Assembly (NCBI GenBank): GCA_963664405.1
Contig: OY761158.1
Coordinates: forward strand, 6,080,001-6,144,000
Direction: 5' to 3'
DNA length: 64,000 nucleotides
Source of the DNA: Thermoanaerobaculia bacterium
Lineage (GTDB): Bacteria; Acidobacteriota; Thermoanaerobaculia; Multivoradales; Multivoraceae
Under the pieces are notes generated by a model. It did no database searches. It was not told where the DNA came from and saw only the letters and a list, made by a program, of their open reading frames with translations. Positions 40,015 through 44,563 of this stretch are shown in pieces (within the stretch, counting starts at the first letter, position 1; each line of letters opens with the position of its first letter). A program made the position numbers and the translations under genes.

Positions 40015-40887
40015 ATGACTCTTCAGCGGACGTTGCTGGTCACCCTCCTTTCGCTGGCCGGCTCTGCATCTGTCTGGGCTGAGTGCGGCGAGGCCGGCGT
40101 CGCGGTCCAGATACTAGGGTCGGGCGGCCCGACCGGGTCGAGTCGCGCGTCGGCCGGATACATTGTCTGGATCGACGGAGTCAGCCGCATTATGGTGGAC
40201 GCCGGCGGCGGCACCTTCGCGCATTTTCATGAGTCGGGTGCGAAGGTCGATGACCTGCAACTGCTCGCGCTGAGCCATTTTCATCCCGATCACTCTGCTG
40301 AAGTGCCGGCGATTTTGTGGCCGCGAGGTGGCAACCTGCGCGTCTCAGGCCCGTCTGGGAGCGCGGGATTCCCCTCGCTAGGCGAATTCCTCGACGGCTT
40401 GTTTGGCGCGAATGGCGTATTCCGAGTGTTGAATAGCCGTGCGAGCTTCGACCCGGTAACGGTAGACGCGGCAGTGCGAGCTCCGGTGGAAGTGCTTGCC
40501 GACGAAGAAGTGCGGGTCTCGGCTATCGGCGTGCCGCACGGTTCGGTTCCTGCACTGGCATATCGAGTCGAGGTCGGTGGCTCGAGTGTCGTCTTCAGCA
40601 GTGACCAGAATGGCTCGGATCCGGCGTTTGTGAAGTTCAGTCGCGGCGCGGACGTCTTGATCGTTCATTTCGCCGGTTCGGAAGAAGGCGGCCGAGCGCA
40701 GAGCCGGAATCTGCACGCCAAACCGAGCGTTTGGGGACAGATTGCGACCGATGCCGAGGTCGGCACTCTAGTTCTCAGCCACATCTCTTCGAATCAGGAT
40801 TTCGATGCGAACCTGGCGCATCTGAAGTCACGCTATAGCGGACCACTCGTGGTGGCTGAAGATCTGATCTGCGTAGCTGTCGACTAG
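40015..40887 (+). CDS. MBL-fold metallohydrolase (RNase Z/arylsulfatase-like), secreted
   Basis: VQILGSGGP, VDAGGG, SHFHPDH, FSSDQ, LVLSH. Confidence 0.85.
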   Translation: MTLQRTLLVTLLSLAGSASVWAECGEAGVAVQILGSGGPTGSSRASAGYIVWIDGVSRIMVDAGGGTFAHFHESGAKVDDLQLLALSHFHPDHSAEVPAILWPRGGNLRVSGPSGSAGFPSLGEFLDGLFGANGVFRVLNSRASFDPVTVDAAVRAPVEVLADEEVRVSAIGVPHGSVPALAYRVEVGGSSVVFSSDQNGSDPAFVKFSRGADVLIVHFAGSEEGGRAQSRNLHAKPSVWGQIATDAEVGTLVLSHISSNQDFDANLAHLKSRYSGPLVVAEDLICVAVD

Positions 40888-41041
40888 GGCTGGCCGCCCA
40901 GGGCACCCCACCTCACCGCGTGCTCGTCACTCCGCTCCTCGCCGTACGCAGAGTACGGCTGCGTCGCCTCGTTCCTGCGCTGCGGCGATCTGGGGCACCC
41001 TGAACGCCCAGCACGGGTTGATGCGAGAAACGCTGGTCTAG
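40884..41041. repeat. CTAG-bounded palindromic miniature element (REP/MITE-like)
   Basis: ~30-bp imperfect arms (GCTGGCCGCCCAGGGCACCCCA / TGGGGCACCCTGAACGCCCAGC), inner hairpin GCCGTAC-GCAGA-GTACGGC; right end GAAACGCTGGTCTAG identical to the 52096-52110 terminus. Confidence 0.75.
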
Positions 41042-41193
41042 TACATGCGTTGCCTTGGTTTGAAACTAGAGGTTTGACCCGTACTCTCGAATTTACATTT
41101 CTGACGTGAGCTTTTCACCCTCTTGACGACTTCGAAGTCGGGGCTCCATACACTTCGAAAGCGCAGTGTTTTACACCTGAAAAGGAGAACAAT

Positions 41194-41415
41194 ATGTCTG
41201 GAGAAACTCGGAACCATCTGGAGCATGTGCTCGAGAACGTCAAGACCAGCCGTCGTGAGGCTCTAAAGCGCCTGCTCGTCGGTGGTGGTGTCTTGGCGGT
41301 TCTACCCCCCGTATCGGTCGCGCTGGCCCAGGGCGGAGGCCGGGGCAAGGGCGAGGGCGGAGGCCGGGGCCGGGGCAAGGGCGAGGGACCAGGCACAGAA
41401 ACAGGAACAGAGTGA
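41194..41415 (+). CDS. 73-aa precursor-like peptide: twin-arginine-like leader plus Gly/Arg/Lys-rich repeat core
   Basis: RBS AAGGAG; SRREALKRLL..hydrophobic..ALA-QGGGRGKGEGGGRGRGKGEGPGTETGTE; stop overlaps the next start (GTGA). Confidence 0.7.
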   Translation: MSGETRNHLEHVLENVKTSRREALKRLLVGGGVLAVLPPVSVALAQGGGRGKGEGGGRGRGKGEGPGTETGTE

Positions 41416-42581
41416 AACTCCTCCTCGTCAAACCTTCAGCGCTGGTGGCGCCGGTGGGAGACGGCTACGTCGTCTACGATGTCGAGGAGGATCAGCTACA
41501 CCACTTGAATCCTTCGGCAGCCCTGATCGTGGAGTTGTGTGACGGCTCCCGTCATCTCGACCAGATCAGGGCTGCTCTCCTCCCTCTGCTCGGCGAGTCC
41601 GGATGGGAGGATTGCGTTCGCTGGATCGACGAGGCGGAGAGGACTGGCCTACTGGTGAGCGGGCCTCCCGCTGGGCTCGGTGGCGCCGAGGTCTCCGCCA
41701 ACCGACTCGTCGAGCTTGCGGATCGCCTTCGTAGCGATGACCGAGTACTCGCGGCGTTCGTTTGCCAGACGCACGCCGCCGAGCTGGCTCCCGACGAGCC
41801 GCTGATGTGGTGTCGACTCGGTGAGCTCGCTCACATCGTCGGTCGCAGAGCCGAGGCGCGCGAAGCGTACGAGCGCTACTTCGAAAGACATCCTGAGGAC
41901 GCGGAGGTCGAGCACATTCTGGTGGCACTCCGCGATGATGCGCCACCGGCGCGAGCTTCCGATCAGTTCATCGAGCAGCTCTATTCGCGCTTCGCATCTT
42001 TCTACGACACCAACATGTGCGACGAGCTCGAGTATCGGGCCCCTCGCCGGCTGTTCGAGGTCGTTTCTCCGACTCTGGCGGGTCGCGATCAGCTCGACGT
42101 GCTGGATCTCGGTTGTGGCACGGGGCTGAACGGCGAGCTGCTTCGCGCTCATGCGCGGCGACTGATTGGTATCGACCTTTCGCCGCAGATGATCGAGCGG
42201 GCTCAGGAGAGAGCGGTCTACGACGAGCTGCATCAGGCAGAGATCACGGCCTGGCTGGAGGGCTGTGCCGCGCGCTACGACCTGATTGCCGCCTGCGACA
42301 CGCTGATCTACTTCGGCGACTTACGCCAGGTGGTGCTGCCGGCGGCACGCAGGCTGAGTGCGAACGGAACGATCGCTTTTACCGTCGAGCGGGGCGACAA
42401 CGCCCCGTTTCAGCTCGGCGACTCGGGGCGCTTCACCCACCACCCCGATCATCTGCGTGCCGTGGCGGCCGAGACTGGACTGTCGGTAGTGGGAATCGAG
42501 GAGACCGTGCTGCGCTCAGAGTACGGCGATCCCGTGGAAGGGCTGGTTGCCGTGTTCTCTACTGACTCGGTCCCTCCCTAG
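41412..42581 (+). CDS. PqqD/RRE domain + TPR + class I SAM-dependent methyltransferase fusion
   Basis: N-terminal DGYVVYD...HHLNPSAALIVELCDGSR...GLL (PqqD-like); TPR segment; VLDLGCGTG, GIDLSPQM, DTLIYFGDL, AFTVE, SGRFTH (COG4976-like methyltransferase). Confidence 0.82.
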   Translation: MKLLLVKPSALVAPVGDGYVVYDVEEDQLHHLNPSAALIVELCDGSRHLDQIRAALLPLLGESGWEDCVRWIDEAERTGLLVSGPPAGLGGAEVSANRLVELADRLRSDDRVLAAFVCQTHAAELAPDEPLMWCRLGELAHIVGRRAEAREAYERYFERHPEDAEVEHILVALRDDAPPARASDQFIEQLYSRFASFYDTNMCDELEYRAPRRLFEVVSPTLAGRDQLDVLDLGCGTGLNGELLRAHARRLIGIDLSPQMIERAQERAVYDELHQAEITAWLEGCAARYDLIAACDTLIYFGDLRQVVLPAARRLSANGTIAFTVERGDNAPFQLGDSGRFTHHPDHLRAVAAETGLSVVGIEETVLRSEYGDPVEGLVAVFSTDSVPP

Positions 42582-42798
42582 TCGTCGGCGACTTTGCCTA
42601 CCACCTGACCCAACATCTCTTCAACACCGAGGAGCGTCTGTTCGCCGATCCCGACGGCACCATCCGAGCGCGTTGCCGACTTGGCCGGAGTCGACTTTCG
42701 ACGTGTGCGCTTATGGATCTTTGCCCGTACTGCTGTCACGCCTCCAGACGGGAGAGGGATGCGGTCCCCGCCTTCTTGCGATCGATCGCGCCGCACTG
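42581..42798 (+). pseudogene. APH(6)/hydroxyurea-resistance kinase family, C-terminal remnant
   Basis: VVGDFAYHLTQHLFNTEERLFADPDGTI then, after a frameshift, RVADLAGVDFRRVRLWIFARTA. Confidence 0.6.
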
Positions 42799-42966
42799 AA
42801 AGTGGACCGTAACACTCGAACGTTTAGTGGCTGAGTGAGTCATTCGTGGTCGAGATCAAGGCGCGCTGACGCAGGCATATCGGGGACTATGTCGAGGAAG
42901 CGTAACGCAGAGATCGGCCGCGAGGGCCGCTCAGGCGCTAAACGTTTGGGTGTTACGGCCCACTAG
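42799..42966. repeat. Palindromic miniature element (REP/MITE-like), right end CTAG
   Basis: Arms AGTGGACCGTAACACTCGAACGTTTAGTGGCTGAG / CTCAGGCGCTAAACGTTTGGGTGTTACGGCCCACTAG; core shared with 51945-52110. Confidence 0.82.
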
Positions 42967-43036
42967 ATCGAAGGAGACTGCTCGAGGGCGCCTGGAGGCG
43001 GGATACCATCGCCAGGCGCGGAAGGAGAATCTCCTT

Positions 43037-44563
43037 ATGTTGATTCGAGTCATCGCCCTCCTCTTCCCTTCGCTGTTGATGGTTGTTGCTGGCTTCGCCC
43101 AGGATCGGGCGCGCCCGAACATCCTCTTCATCTTTTCGGACGACCACGCCTATCAGGCGATCAGCGCCTACGGCTCGCGGATCAACCACACCCCGAATAT
43201 CGATCGCCTTGCCCGGGAGGGGATGAGGTTCGAGAACGCCCTGGTCACCAACTCGATCTGCGCGCCGAGTCGGGCGGTGATCCTCAGCGGCAAGTACAGC
43301 CACCTCAACGGTGTTCTCGACAACGTCCTGGCCTTCGACGGCTCGCAGCAGACCTTCCCGAAGCTGCTTCAGCAGGCCGGGTATCAGACCGCGATGATCG
43401 GCAAGTGGCATCTCAAGAGCGATCCGACCGGGTTCGATCATTGGGAGGTGCTGCCCGGGCAGGGCTCCTACTACAACCCCGACATGCGCATCGAGGGAGG
43501 GGAGCGGCAACATCACGGCTATGTGACCGACATCATCACCGATCTGACCTTGGAGTGGCTCGAGGAGAAGCGTGACGACGATCGGCCGTTCATGGTGATG
43601 ACCCAGCACAAAGCCCCGCATCGCAACTGGATGCCGGGTCCAGAGCATCTGACGCTCTACGACGGGGTGACGCTGTGGGAGCCGCCGACGCTCTTCGACG
43701 ACTATGCCAACCGTGCGAGCCCGGCACGTCTCCAGGAAATGGAGATCGGGCGTCACATGAGGGATTGGCACGACCTGAAAATCAAGCCGCCAGCCGATAC
43801 TCCCGAGAGCGATCTCCTACTACGAAGGTGGCTTCTGACCTACGGTCGCCTCGACGAGGGGCAGCGATTGGTTTGGGATGCCATCTACGAGCCCAAGAAC
43901 GCTGCGTTCGCGGCGGCCAATCTCAAGGGGCGCGAGCTGGTGCGCTGGAAGTACCAGCGCTACATCAAGGATTACCTGCGCACCATCGCTTCCATCGACG
44001 ACAATGTCGGGAGACTTCTGCGCTACCTCGATGCGACCGGCCTGGCGGAGAACACCGTCGTCATCTACAGCTCCGACCAGGGTTTCTACCTGGGGGAGCA
44101 CGGCTGGTTCGATAAACGGTGGATGTATGAAGAGTCACTCAAGACTCCACTCCTCGTGCGCTGGCCCGGCGTGGTGGCAGGGGGAAGCGTCAACACCGAC
44201 ATGGTCTCCAACCTGGATTACGCCGAGACTTTCCTGGAGATCGCGGGCGTCGAGGCTCCCGATGCGATGCAGGGCCGGAGCCTGGTGCCACTACTCGCCG
44301 GCAGCACTCCCGGCGATTGGCGGCAGAGCTTCTACTACCACTACTACGAGAAGGGGGTGCACAACGTGGCGCCCCACGAAGGCCTGCGGACCCCGACCCA
44401 CAAGCTGATCTCCTACTACGAGACCGGAGAGTGGGAGCTCTTTGATTTGGAAGCCGACCCTCACGAGCTGCGAAGTGTGTATGGTGCGAAAGGTTACCGG
44501 CGGCTTCAGAGTGAGCTACTGGAGGAGATGGAACGGCTGCGGCGTGAGTTGGGCGTGCCCTGA
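43037..44563 (+). CDS. Sulfatase (N-acetylglucosamine-6-sulfatase-like), secreted
   Basis: [47 protein letters not shown]. Confidence 0.93.

Follow-up and report, generated by a model that had tools for sequence, protein, structure and literature searches.

Pathways for peptides that are synthesized ribosomally and modified post-translationally (RiPPs) are usually found through their class-defining enzymes, and they usually bring their own protease and exporter. Here we describe a two-gene system from a Thermoanaerobaculia bacterium, located in a 64,000-nucleotide stretch of genome assembly GCA_963664405.1 (contig OY761158.1, positions 6,080,001 to 6,144,000 of the forward strand; this whole stretch is called the window, and coordinates refer to it unless a contig or locus is named). 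The system consists of a gene for a 73-amino acid (aa) precursor peptide, followed by a gene for a 389-aa enzyme in which a RiPP recognition element (RRE) is fused to a tetratricopeptide repeat (TPR) region and a class I S-adenosylmethionine (SAM)-dependent methyltransferase. The pair looks like an RRE-guided RiPP-like pathway and is apparently undescribed.

Among described systems, the bufferins are MNIO-modified RiPPs that carry Sec signal peptides and have an RRE-type partner, and, according to the accessible text of PMC11626156, the secretion signal on the precursor allows housekeeping export and signal peptidase to replace a dedicated transporter and protease, which is rare among bacterial RiPPs. 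In the same text, the MNIO enzyme and its DUF2063 partner form thiooxazoles on Cys residues, the folded cores of 60-70 aa bind copper, and the bufferin signal peptide is dispensable for modification (PMC11626156). N-methylation of RiPP side chains has been reported as the dimethylation of Lys in fungal epichloecyclins by GigC, alongside the N-terminal dimethylation of plantazolicin, and the accessible part of this 2024 review of RiPP methyltransferases gives lysine N-methylation only for the fungal epichloecyclins (PMC11285071).

No description of the gene pair was found in the Pfam, NCBIfam and Rfam libraries, and literature searches gave no paper on a RiPP with a twin-arginine translocation (Tat) leader or on a PqqD-TPR-methyltransferase, while supplementary tables of RRE families could list the architecture. 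An earlier prediction made from the letters of the window (hereafter the original prediction) had likewise known of no pathway with such a minimal layout. The words methyltransferase, TPR, signal peptide and HPr are all absent from the main text of the RRE-Finder paper (PMC7470986), signals are mentioned in a 2025 RRE survey only as Sec signals of DUF2282 precursors (PMC12710340), and a search under ‘predicted TPR repeat methyltransferase’ returned only a genome report. Two ESM Atlas clusters of the same architecture have been automatically named ‘PqqD family peptide modification chaperone’, so the domain, though not the system, has been noticed by annotation pipelines.

Gene Pair and Domain Architecture

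Computational analysis of the window found a precursor gene and an enzyme gene that are conserved as a pair, with an RRE fold and a class I methyltransferase domain in the enzyme and a Tat-signal match in the peptide. The pair comprises the following features.

41194-41415, + strand: precursor peptide gene, ATG start, 73 aa plus stop (from the list of open reading frames, ORFs)
41412-42581, + strand: RRE-TPR-methyltransferase gene, GTG start, 389 aa plus stop (ORF list)
41182-41187, + strand: strong ribosome-binding site AAGGAG, 6 nt ahead of the peptide ATG (sequence inspection)
41000-41193, + strand: relatively AT-rich upstream region, presumed promoter and 5' untranslated region of the two-gene unit (GC content)
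41412-41660, + strand: PqqD-like RRE, enzyme residues 1-83 (Pfam, profile and fold matches)
41697-41930, + strand: TPR-like helical region, residues 96-173 (AlphaFold2 helices, profile matches)
41961-42578, + strand: class I SAM-dependent methyltransferase domain, residues 184-389, with the SAM motif LDLGCGTGL (Pfam, fold)

The two genes overlap by four nucleotides (GTGA, 41412-41415), in which the GTG start of the enzyme gene runs into the TGA stop of the peptide gene. The GC content is 0.47-0.51 across 41000-41224, compared with about 0.60-0.69 in the surrounding DNA. The original prediction had proposed just this layout, namely a 73-aa ORF with a good ribosome-binding site that overlaps a 389-aa ORF, behind a relatively AT-rich region, and its coordinates, binding site, overlap and base composition were all recovered.

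It had also read the N-terminus of the enzyme as a PqqD-type RRE, and several lines of evidence agree. The Pfam model PqqD (PF05402) matches residues 19-57 at 29.7 bits against a cut-off of 23.4, and the profile of the enzyme family, compared with solved structures, finds the lasso peptide RRE TfuB1 (6jx3_B) at E 2.7e-4. When a model of residues 1-100 (predicted local distance difference test, pLDDT, 81.8) was used for a fold search, nearly all of the best PDB matches were RREs, headed by 6jx3_B (TfuB1; template modelling score, TM, 0.67/0.77; root-mean-square deviation, rmsd, 2.2), 5v1v_A (TbiB1) and 8t19_A. Both lasso B1 proteins, TfuB1 and TbiB1, were solved with their leaders, and they match with TM 0.67-0.77 and rmsd 2.1-2.2. 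Further matches were the RRE of PbtF and the RREs of LynD/TruD, sactisynthases, ThcOx, MccB and NisB.

The TPR region and methyltransferase domain that had been proposed to follow the RRE are equally evident. The AlphaFold2 model of the full enzyme (mean pLDDT 90.6, predicted TM score 0.85) begins, in residues 3-83, with helices and three to four strands, continues with five helices in a paired arrangement in residues 96-173 (96-108, 112-125, 130-142, 146-159 and 164-173) and closes with a Rossmann-type alpha/beta domain. The family profile matches solved TPR proteins at E 1e-19, while the Pfam TPR models applied to the single sequence stay just below their cut-offs (TPR_14, 22.9 vs 23.5). For the catalytic part, Methyltransf_25, Methyltransf_12 and Methyltransf_11 match residues 230-323 at 47-51 bits, Methyltransf_23 and Methyltransf_31 are likewise above their cut-offs, and G234, C235, G236 and G238 of the SAM motif (GxGxG) are invariant. 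The closest solved relative by sequence is METTL27 (7qcb, E 1.1e-13), and the fold matches include NodS, UbiG, phosphatidylethanolamine N-methyltransferase, NTM1 and DnrK, all generic class I enzymes, whose acceptors are N, O and C atoms. Positions Y191, C295, Q306, P332, D337, H344, H347 and Y371 mark the clade of RRE-fused enzymes.

Conservation of the Pairing

At least 680 homologs of the enzyme were found at E <= 0.001 among the candidates scored, and where they are named, the names are ‘predicted TPR repeat methyltransferase’ or ‘methyltransferase’. The best 120 of these 680 are 352-480 aa long with 51-65% identity, the best protein relative reaching 65%. A search without a word index returned 11,388 relatives, most of which align only from about residue 90-145 onward, so the RRE-fused form is a minority branch of a large TPR-methyltransferase family. 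Matches start within the first 16 residues in 32 of the best 150 representatives at 50% identity (manual count), and 8 of the 80 loci kept from reference-genome contigs match from residue 11 or earlier, which agrees with the earlier statement that TPR-methyltransferases normally lack an RRE.

The surroundings of the fused form were surveyed in 86 loci (numbered with L). Of these, 80 lie on metagenome contigs and were retrieved by searching with an alignment restricted to the N-terminal domain. The other 6 are from reference genomes, which had supplied 8 loci; two were left out, L002 because its upstream DNA was too short and L012 because its match was broken. By their record titles, the reference carriers belong to Pirellulales, Isosphaeraceae, Planctomycetaceae, Phycisphaera, Acidobacteriota and Micropepsaceae, together with another alphaproteobacterium. 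At least 330 nt of upstream DNA are available in 82 loci, and in 75 of these a short ORF on the same strand ends just ahead of the enzyme gene; every one of these ORFs combines an RR-x-F-L-K-type motif with a hydrophobic stretch and a tail rich in Lys. Two further loci have the peptide in another setting: in L137 it is cut by the contig end, and in L086 it lies 2 kb upstream with one gene between. Such a peptide occurs in none of the 72 control loci of RRE-less TPR-methyltransferases (L009-L080). The pairing of peptide and RRE-TPR-methyltransferase is therefore not chance. As the original prediction had expected, homologs as a rule have a short ORF beside the enzyme gene whose leader is conserved and whose core varies; these cores are rich in Gly/Lys.

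When the flanking ORFs of 87 loci were clustered all against all, the enzyme cluster covered 80 of them. Second in size is a cluster from 15 loci that looks from its coordinates like an opposite-strand ORF over the start of the peptide or enzyme gene, and the largest plausible clusters of neighbouring genes cover 10 and 9 of the 87 loci. No conserved protease, transporter or immunity gene appeared in this clustering, and since no other gene is common across the 87 loci, the conserved unit consists of exactly two genes.

Leader of the Precursor Peptide

The peptide gene is divided as follows.

41194-41328, + strand: leader, 45 aa, with L13, V16, S-R-R-E-A-L-K (residues 19-25), a hydrophobic region and the signal peptidase site A43-L44-A45
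41329-41412, + strand: core, 28 aa, rich in Gly/Arg/Lys/Glu, then a Thr/Glu tail
41330-41387, + strand: tandem DNA duplication that builds the core (Tandem Repeats Finder)

These boundaries are the ones drawn by the original prediction, which had further suggested that the leader may double as a Tat signal and that the core arose from an internal DNA duplication. The duplication is real, and the idea of a Tat signal is supported. The NCBIfam model TIGR01409 (TAT_signal_seq) matches residues 18-43 at 20.1 bits against a cut-off of 16.7; the peptide has the S/T-R-R-x-F-L-K-type motif, followed by a hydrophobic region and an A-x-A site, that is expected of a Tat substrate; and the source genome encodes TatC (PF00902, 232.7 bits). 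The duplication is resolved by Tandem Repeats Finder either with period 24 (2.2 copies, 90% matches) or with period 30 (1.9 copies, 92%).

In an alignment of 35 related peptides, L13, R20 and R21 (numbering of the 73-aa peptide) are invariant in 35/35, and V16, G30, P38 and A45 are at least 90% conserved, while the tails of the same peptides cannot be aligned. In consensus, the leader opens with L-D-x-A-L-x-x-V and leads over a few residues to R-R-G-F-L-K; next come a hydrophobic stretch that is rich in Gly/Ala/Ser and contains a Pro, and then A-x-A with Q behind it. Against the profile of the 35 peptides, the 73-aa peptide scores E 4.2e-18, and its genome has no other strong copy. TIGR01409 matches 23 of the 35 at E <= 0.01, and the Pfam and NCBIfam scans of all 35 returned only Tat-signal models and no family-specific model. 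TIGR02811 (‘formate dehydrogenase region TAT target’) was found in 19/35 peptides and is not taken as membership, the match presumably arising through the signal region; PF22807 (7/35) and an EF-hand model (1/35) were set aside as low-complexity or incidental matches. Ordinary Tat n-regions would not be expected to have a conserved segment ahead of the RR motif, and to judge from the alignment, this segment is a candidate docking site for the RRE.

Docking was also modelled, with the enzyme alignment and SAM as input and the peptide alignment as partner. The complex scored 0.58 (runs 0.58, 0.58 and 0.60) against 0.00 for the best of three controls, a result whose calibration is only rough here because own alignments and a riding ligand were used; the pass mark is reached by 58 of 80 solved complexes and by 2 of 110 mismatched pairs. 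The runs agree in at least 48% of contacts, with a partner pLDDT of at least 55. The verdict on the complex was ‘weak support’; the leader may dock on the RRE.

These results bear on the simplest alternative, according to which the adjacency reflects co-regulation only and the peptide is an independent, low-complexity envelope protein secreted by Tat and never touched by the enzyme. Low-complexity Lys/Gly tails do evolve fast by slippage, and small Tat-signal proteins with no assigned role exist, as the TIGR02811 matches, presumably through the signal region, illustrate. Against this stand an association that is both tight and specific (75/82 vs 0/72) across several phyla, the conservation of the pre-RR segment and a complex score above all controls, and independence of the two genes therefore appears very improbable.

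A second alternative takes the conservation of the leader in another direction. The Tat proofreading chaperones TorD, DmsD and NapD are cytoplasmic and hold a Tat signal until maturation of the cargo is complete, and the PqqD-TPR part might likewise be a Tat-signal chaperone or proofreading factor similar to TorD/DmsD, with the methyltransferase acting elsewhere or having a regulatory role. Such a function would suit a peptide whose signal is its most conserved part, an enzyme whose catalytic-region residues are common to non-fused relatives without a peptide, and a genome in which a related stand-alone PqqD protein accompanies another ORF with an RR leader (see below). We consider it improbable all the same, as the SAM motif and the conserved residues of the catalytic region are fully retained in the fused clade and no other candidate substrate gene is conserved nearby. 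In addition, the fusion of an RRE to an enzyme is the usual means of aiming RiPP tailoring enzymes, as is generally known and as the accessible text of PMC11626156 also indicates.

Core Peptides and Methyl Acceptors

The cores are of several unlike types. Some consist of (GK)n repeats, others have 7-8 Lys in a row with Glu/Gly on either side, two distinct motifs contain a pair of Cys, one long form has an EF-hand, and the last type is an RG/KG mixture, to which the core of the 73-aa peptide belongs together with those of L108, L115, L141 and L173. Lys is present in 69/69 distinct cores, with at least 2 and a median of 8 residues, and the OY761158.1 core stands at the minimum of 2. When cut by a heuristic rule, which gives 30 aa with three leader residues included, the latter core contains 2 Lys, 3 Arg, 14 Gly and 4 Asp/Glu, and it has no Cys.

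The original prediction had likened this core to the RGG motifs methylated by eukaryotic protein arginine methyltransferases (PRMTs), an analogy that fared poorly. It rests on an atypical member of the family, since the OY761158.1 core is the poorest in Lys and is biased towards Arg, while Arg occurs in only 14 of the 69 distinct cores. A PRMT-like action on RG/RGG motifs, with arginine as the true target in the source organism, would find its best footing in the RGK/RGRGK contexts of the 3 Arg and 2 Lys and in the mixture of GRG and GKG units in the closest leader subtype (L108, L141, L115, L173). PRMTs are defined by double-E and THW loops; Pfam and NCBIfam scans assigned the 389-aa enzyme to no PRMT-type family at cut-off, and the loops were sought through those scans only. 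PrmA reached E 0.016 and 15.1 bits against a cut-off of 22. With Lys in every core as well, we regard a dedicated arginine methyltransferase as having only a small chance of being right.

Another chemistry to be weighed keeps the same cassette, docking and export but has the enzyme form methyl esters, either at the side chains of Asp/Glu or at the C-terminal carboxylate. The OY761158.1 core ends in an acidic Thr/Glu tail, and the fold matches of the catalytic part include the O-methyltransferases UbiG and DnrK. On the other hand, Lys tracts are the most striking common feature of cores that are otherwise unlike ((GK)n, K7-8 runs, two-Cys loops), the strongly acidic enzymes suit a cationic rather than an anionic target segment, and methyl esters are labile; carboxyl methylation is hence judged unlikely, and lysine remains the favoured acceptor for the family as a whole.

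Further variation among the cores was observed. Two core families have exactly two Cys and make up 25 of the 69 distinct cores, the first with a conserved loop between the Cys residues and then a Lys-rich end, the second with a shorter C-x12-C; they occur in L003, L090, L096, L107, L109 and others, and also in L085, L118 and others. By their sequences, these cores could acquire a disulfide once exported. Moreover, a 150-aa precursor variant with a Tat-type leader is present at L084:2218-2667, L099:30-479 and L103:2464-2913, and carries a calcium-binding EF-hand loop between two Gly/Lys-rich stretches (Pfam EF-hand_1, 25.1 bits vs a cut-off of 25.4).

Proposed Maturation Route

On balance, we think it probable that the two genes form a self-contained, RiPP-like cassette, in which the precursor leader serves both as the recognition leader and as the Tat export signal and the core is methylated before export. 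We infer the following route. The PqqD-type RRE of the 389-aa enzyme would bind the leader within the cytoplasm and hence in the presence of SAM, the likely contact being the L-x-x-x-L-x-x-V segment just ahead of the RR motif and perhaps the RR motif itself. The TPR region and acidic surfaces might hold and position the disordered cationic core, and the class I SAM domain would then methylate it, with lysine epsilon-amines as the likeliest acceptors across the family; in the Arg-biased OY761158.1 core, arginine may be methylated too. After release, the peptide would be exported post-translationally by the housekeeping Tat translocase, a route that would give time for modification, and signal peptidase I would cut after A-L-A, so that a short cationic peptide carrying methyl groups stays in the cell envelope. 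The two-gene layout could be so minimal because no dedicated protease or transporter would be needed; their absence fits a reliance on housekeeping machinery of the kind that the bufferin authors propose for their Sec-dependent peptides (PMC11626156). As for the role of the product, one may speculate that the short, polycationic and possibly permanently charged envelope peptide binds anionic polymers or membranes.

Several observations weigh against this route. A consensus scan around the gene pair found neither a sigma-70-like promoter nor an intrinsic terminator, so the promoter is only presumed. Five of the 82 loci (L001, L122, L130, L133 and L159) have no peptide in the available upstream DNA, and L172 has none in its available DNA. 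In the calibration of the complex model, no more than 7 of the 80 solved complexes passed the mark with a score of 0.60 or under, whereas both passing mismatches did so. In the catalytic region, D296, Y300, E326, R340, H343, R368 and E370 are equally conserved in non-fused relatives; most of the conserved residues around the active site are thus common to relatives without a peptide, so the catalytic centre is not visibly adapted to one. The median net charge of fused enzymes is -19, with -29 for the 389-aa enzyme, and non-fused relatives are also acidic with a median of -13, a difference that is suggestive at most. The acceptor atom is not fixed by homology because the fold matches are to class I enzymes of a generic kind, with N, O and C acceptors alike, and we know of no substrate for METTL27. 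Asp/Glu residues are moreover present in every core (at least 2 in 69/69, median 6) and often form an acidic patch ahead of the run of Lys, so that carboxyl groups are conceivable acceptors.

Distribution and Spread

According to record titles, the family is found in Planctomycetota, Acidobacteriota and Alphaproteobacteria from soil and water. The source genome has a single copy of the cassette. A search of 40 relatives, of which 24 belong to its family and 16 to its order, did not find it, and in a sample of 400 other genomes from the phylum an enzyme match of the full type occurs only in two, G347 and G378. In G378 a peptide is also present, with the same RR-x-A-L leader subtype as the 73-aa peptide, while G347 shows no peptide in the available DNA. 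Vertical inheritance within the family was rejected as the simplest history, the cassette being sporadic among these genomes, and its patchy spread over at least three phyla suggests horizontal movement of a self-sufficient two-gene unit. When the leader profile was run against a large protein collection restricted to 84-2000 aa, it found 9 proteins, all unnamed or ‘hypothetical’; the length limit excluded most family members, and the number says little on the size of the family.

Individual loci show other arrangements. In the Pirellulales locus L001, a start of the L-x-x-L-K-R-R-E-I-L type lies in one frame and a hydrophobic stretch in another (L001:3728-3952), and this remnant may be a frameshifted precursor or a sequencing error. 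An ORF of about 510 aa, membrane protein-like by eye, stands directly upstream of the enzyme gene in L086 (L086:863-2392), and a similar ORF is present in L133 and L159; the precursor of L086 lies upstream of this ORF, and L133 and L159 are without a precursor in the available DNA.

Related PqqD Systems in the Source Genome

A second PqqD operon lies outside the window on the - strand, at about 5,847,500-5,850,200 of the source contig (G000:C1; L166:389-3124). Two of its ORFs are glycosyltransferase-like, and it further encodes a stand-alone PqqD protein of 100 aa and an HprK-like protein of 289 aa. Its last gene is a 55-aa ORF that starts much like the 73-aa peptide, with a hydrophobic-x-x-hydrophobic segment and the RR-type motif S-R-R-D-F-I-R-K, followed by a hydrophobic stretch and a short Ser-rich end. 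The 100-aa protein was found by the enzyme profile and shares 53% identity over 36 residues with the RRE of the 389-aa enzyme. An assignment of this operon to the named HprK_rel_A/PqqD_rel_X system was rejected, as the NCBIfam scores are far below the cut-offs. The order of kinase, PqqD and peptide recurs in G048 (L202/L175), which is the only other genome with the kinase among the 400 phylum genomes. A third PqqD-like ORF, an open frame of 101 aa, matches the profile of the N-terminal domain at G000:C1:1548253-1548408 (E 6.4e-8).

The second operon is in keeping with a clade of PqqD domains that is specialised for RR-type leaders and works with more than one kind of tailoring enzyme. It is conceivable, and put forward tentatively as something short of probable, that the cassette represents a new RiPP class in which the Tat signal itself is the leader recognised by the RRE and is held, in the manner of a proofreading chaperone, until the Lys/Arg core is poly-methylated and then released to Tat and signal peptidase I, which would yield a short, permanently cationic methyl-lysine/arginine peptide in the envelope, and that one PqqD clade links it to a wider, unrecognised superfamily of ‘Tat-leader’ RiPPs. 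The OY761158.1 copy is distinguished by its Arg-biased and very short core, by the gene overlap and by the second RR-leader system in its genome.

Neighbouring Genes and Dispersed Repeats

In the 38-46 kb part of the window, Pfam identified an alpha/beta hydrolase, an amidohydrolase, a metallo-beta-lactamase (MBL)-fold protein and a sulfatase among the neighbours, and an additional ORF of 516 aa is aldehyde dehydrogenase-like by eye. No Rfam match was found at E <= 1 across 40700-43100. Two repeats lie on either side of the pair and are not part of the system.

42801-42958, no strand: element of 158 nt resembling a miniature inverted-repeat transposable element (MITE), with 29-nt inverted ends (inverted repeat)
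40888-41030, no strand: dispersed GC-rich intergenic repeat, just past the stop of the MBL-fold gene

Besides the MITE-like element itself, the genome contains 34 near-full-length copies of it with 87-100% identity, and the element has no Rfam match. Because the listed GTG start of the sulfatase ORF (42950) falls inside this element, the true start probably lies downstream. The GC-rich repeat has about 20 further genome copies of at least 100 nt with 72-94% identity, and some of them form tandem arrays, for example near G000:C1:5,242,300-5,242,870 and 5,447,650-5,448,040. The palindromic elements that the original prediction had seen flanking the pair are thus present, but as genome-wide repeats they are not specific to it.

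Comparison with Known Systems

If the proposed reading is true, the cassette would be the first RiPP-like family known to us in which a Tat signal serves as the leader, and a rare case in which tailoring consists of methylation alone and a fused recognition domain directs it. The cassette would also provide a substrate for one branch of the large and uncharacterised TPR-methyltransferase family that includes METTL27, and a bacterial route for placing methylated polycationic peptides in the envelope.

The lasso peptide B1 proteins TfuB1 and TbiB1 and PqqD have the same winged-helix RRE fold, and as in those systems, a precursor with a conserved leader and a variable core adjoins the enzyme. Compared with RRE-dependent RiPP pathways in general, however, the OY761158.1 pair is without a lasso cyclase, leader protease, radical SAM, YcaO or LanB-type enzyme; its RRE is instead fused to TPR and a class I methyltransferase, and its leader is a Tat signal. 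The Asn-synthetase-like cyclase and transglutaminase-like protease that stand beside PqqD in lasso clusters are not among the genes recognised in the 38-46 kb neighbourhood.

The Tat proofreading chaperones TorD, DmsD and NapD resemble the cassette in the proposed logic alone, as they belong to unrelated folds and families and their cargoes are cofactor-loaded enzymes rather than small peptides. The RRE-less TPR-methyltransferases, of which human METTL27 is the closest solved relative, are homologous over residues about 100-389 and have the catalytic-region residues in common with the 389-aa enzyme, but they have no PqqD domain, and a Tat-leader peptide accompanies them in 0/72 loci.

Like the OY761158.1 pair, the bufferins have a general-secretion signal on the precursor, as far as the accessible text of PMC11626156 describes them. 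They use Sec, whereas the pair uses a Tat-type signal whose region is the most conserved part of the peptide, and its enzyme is a methyltransferase. The Pfam matches of the pair and its neighbours include no MNIO (DUF692), no DUF2063 and no Cys-containing precursor of the DUF2282 type. In epichloecyclins and plantazolicin, SAM-dependent N-methylation is a late step beside the class-defining modifications, in the account given by the accessible part of PMC11285071, whereas in the OY761158.1 pair methylation would be the sole modification and would be aimed by the RRE.

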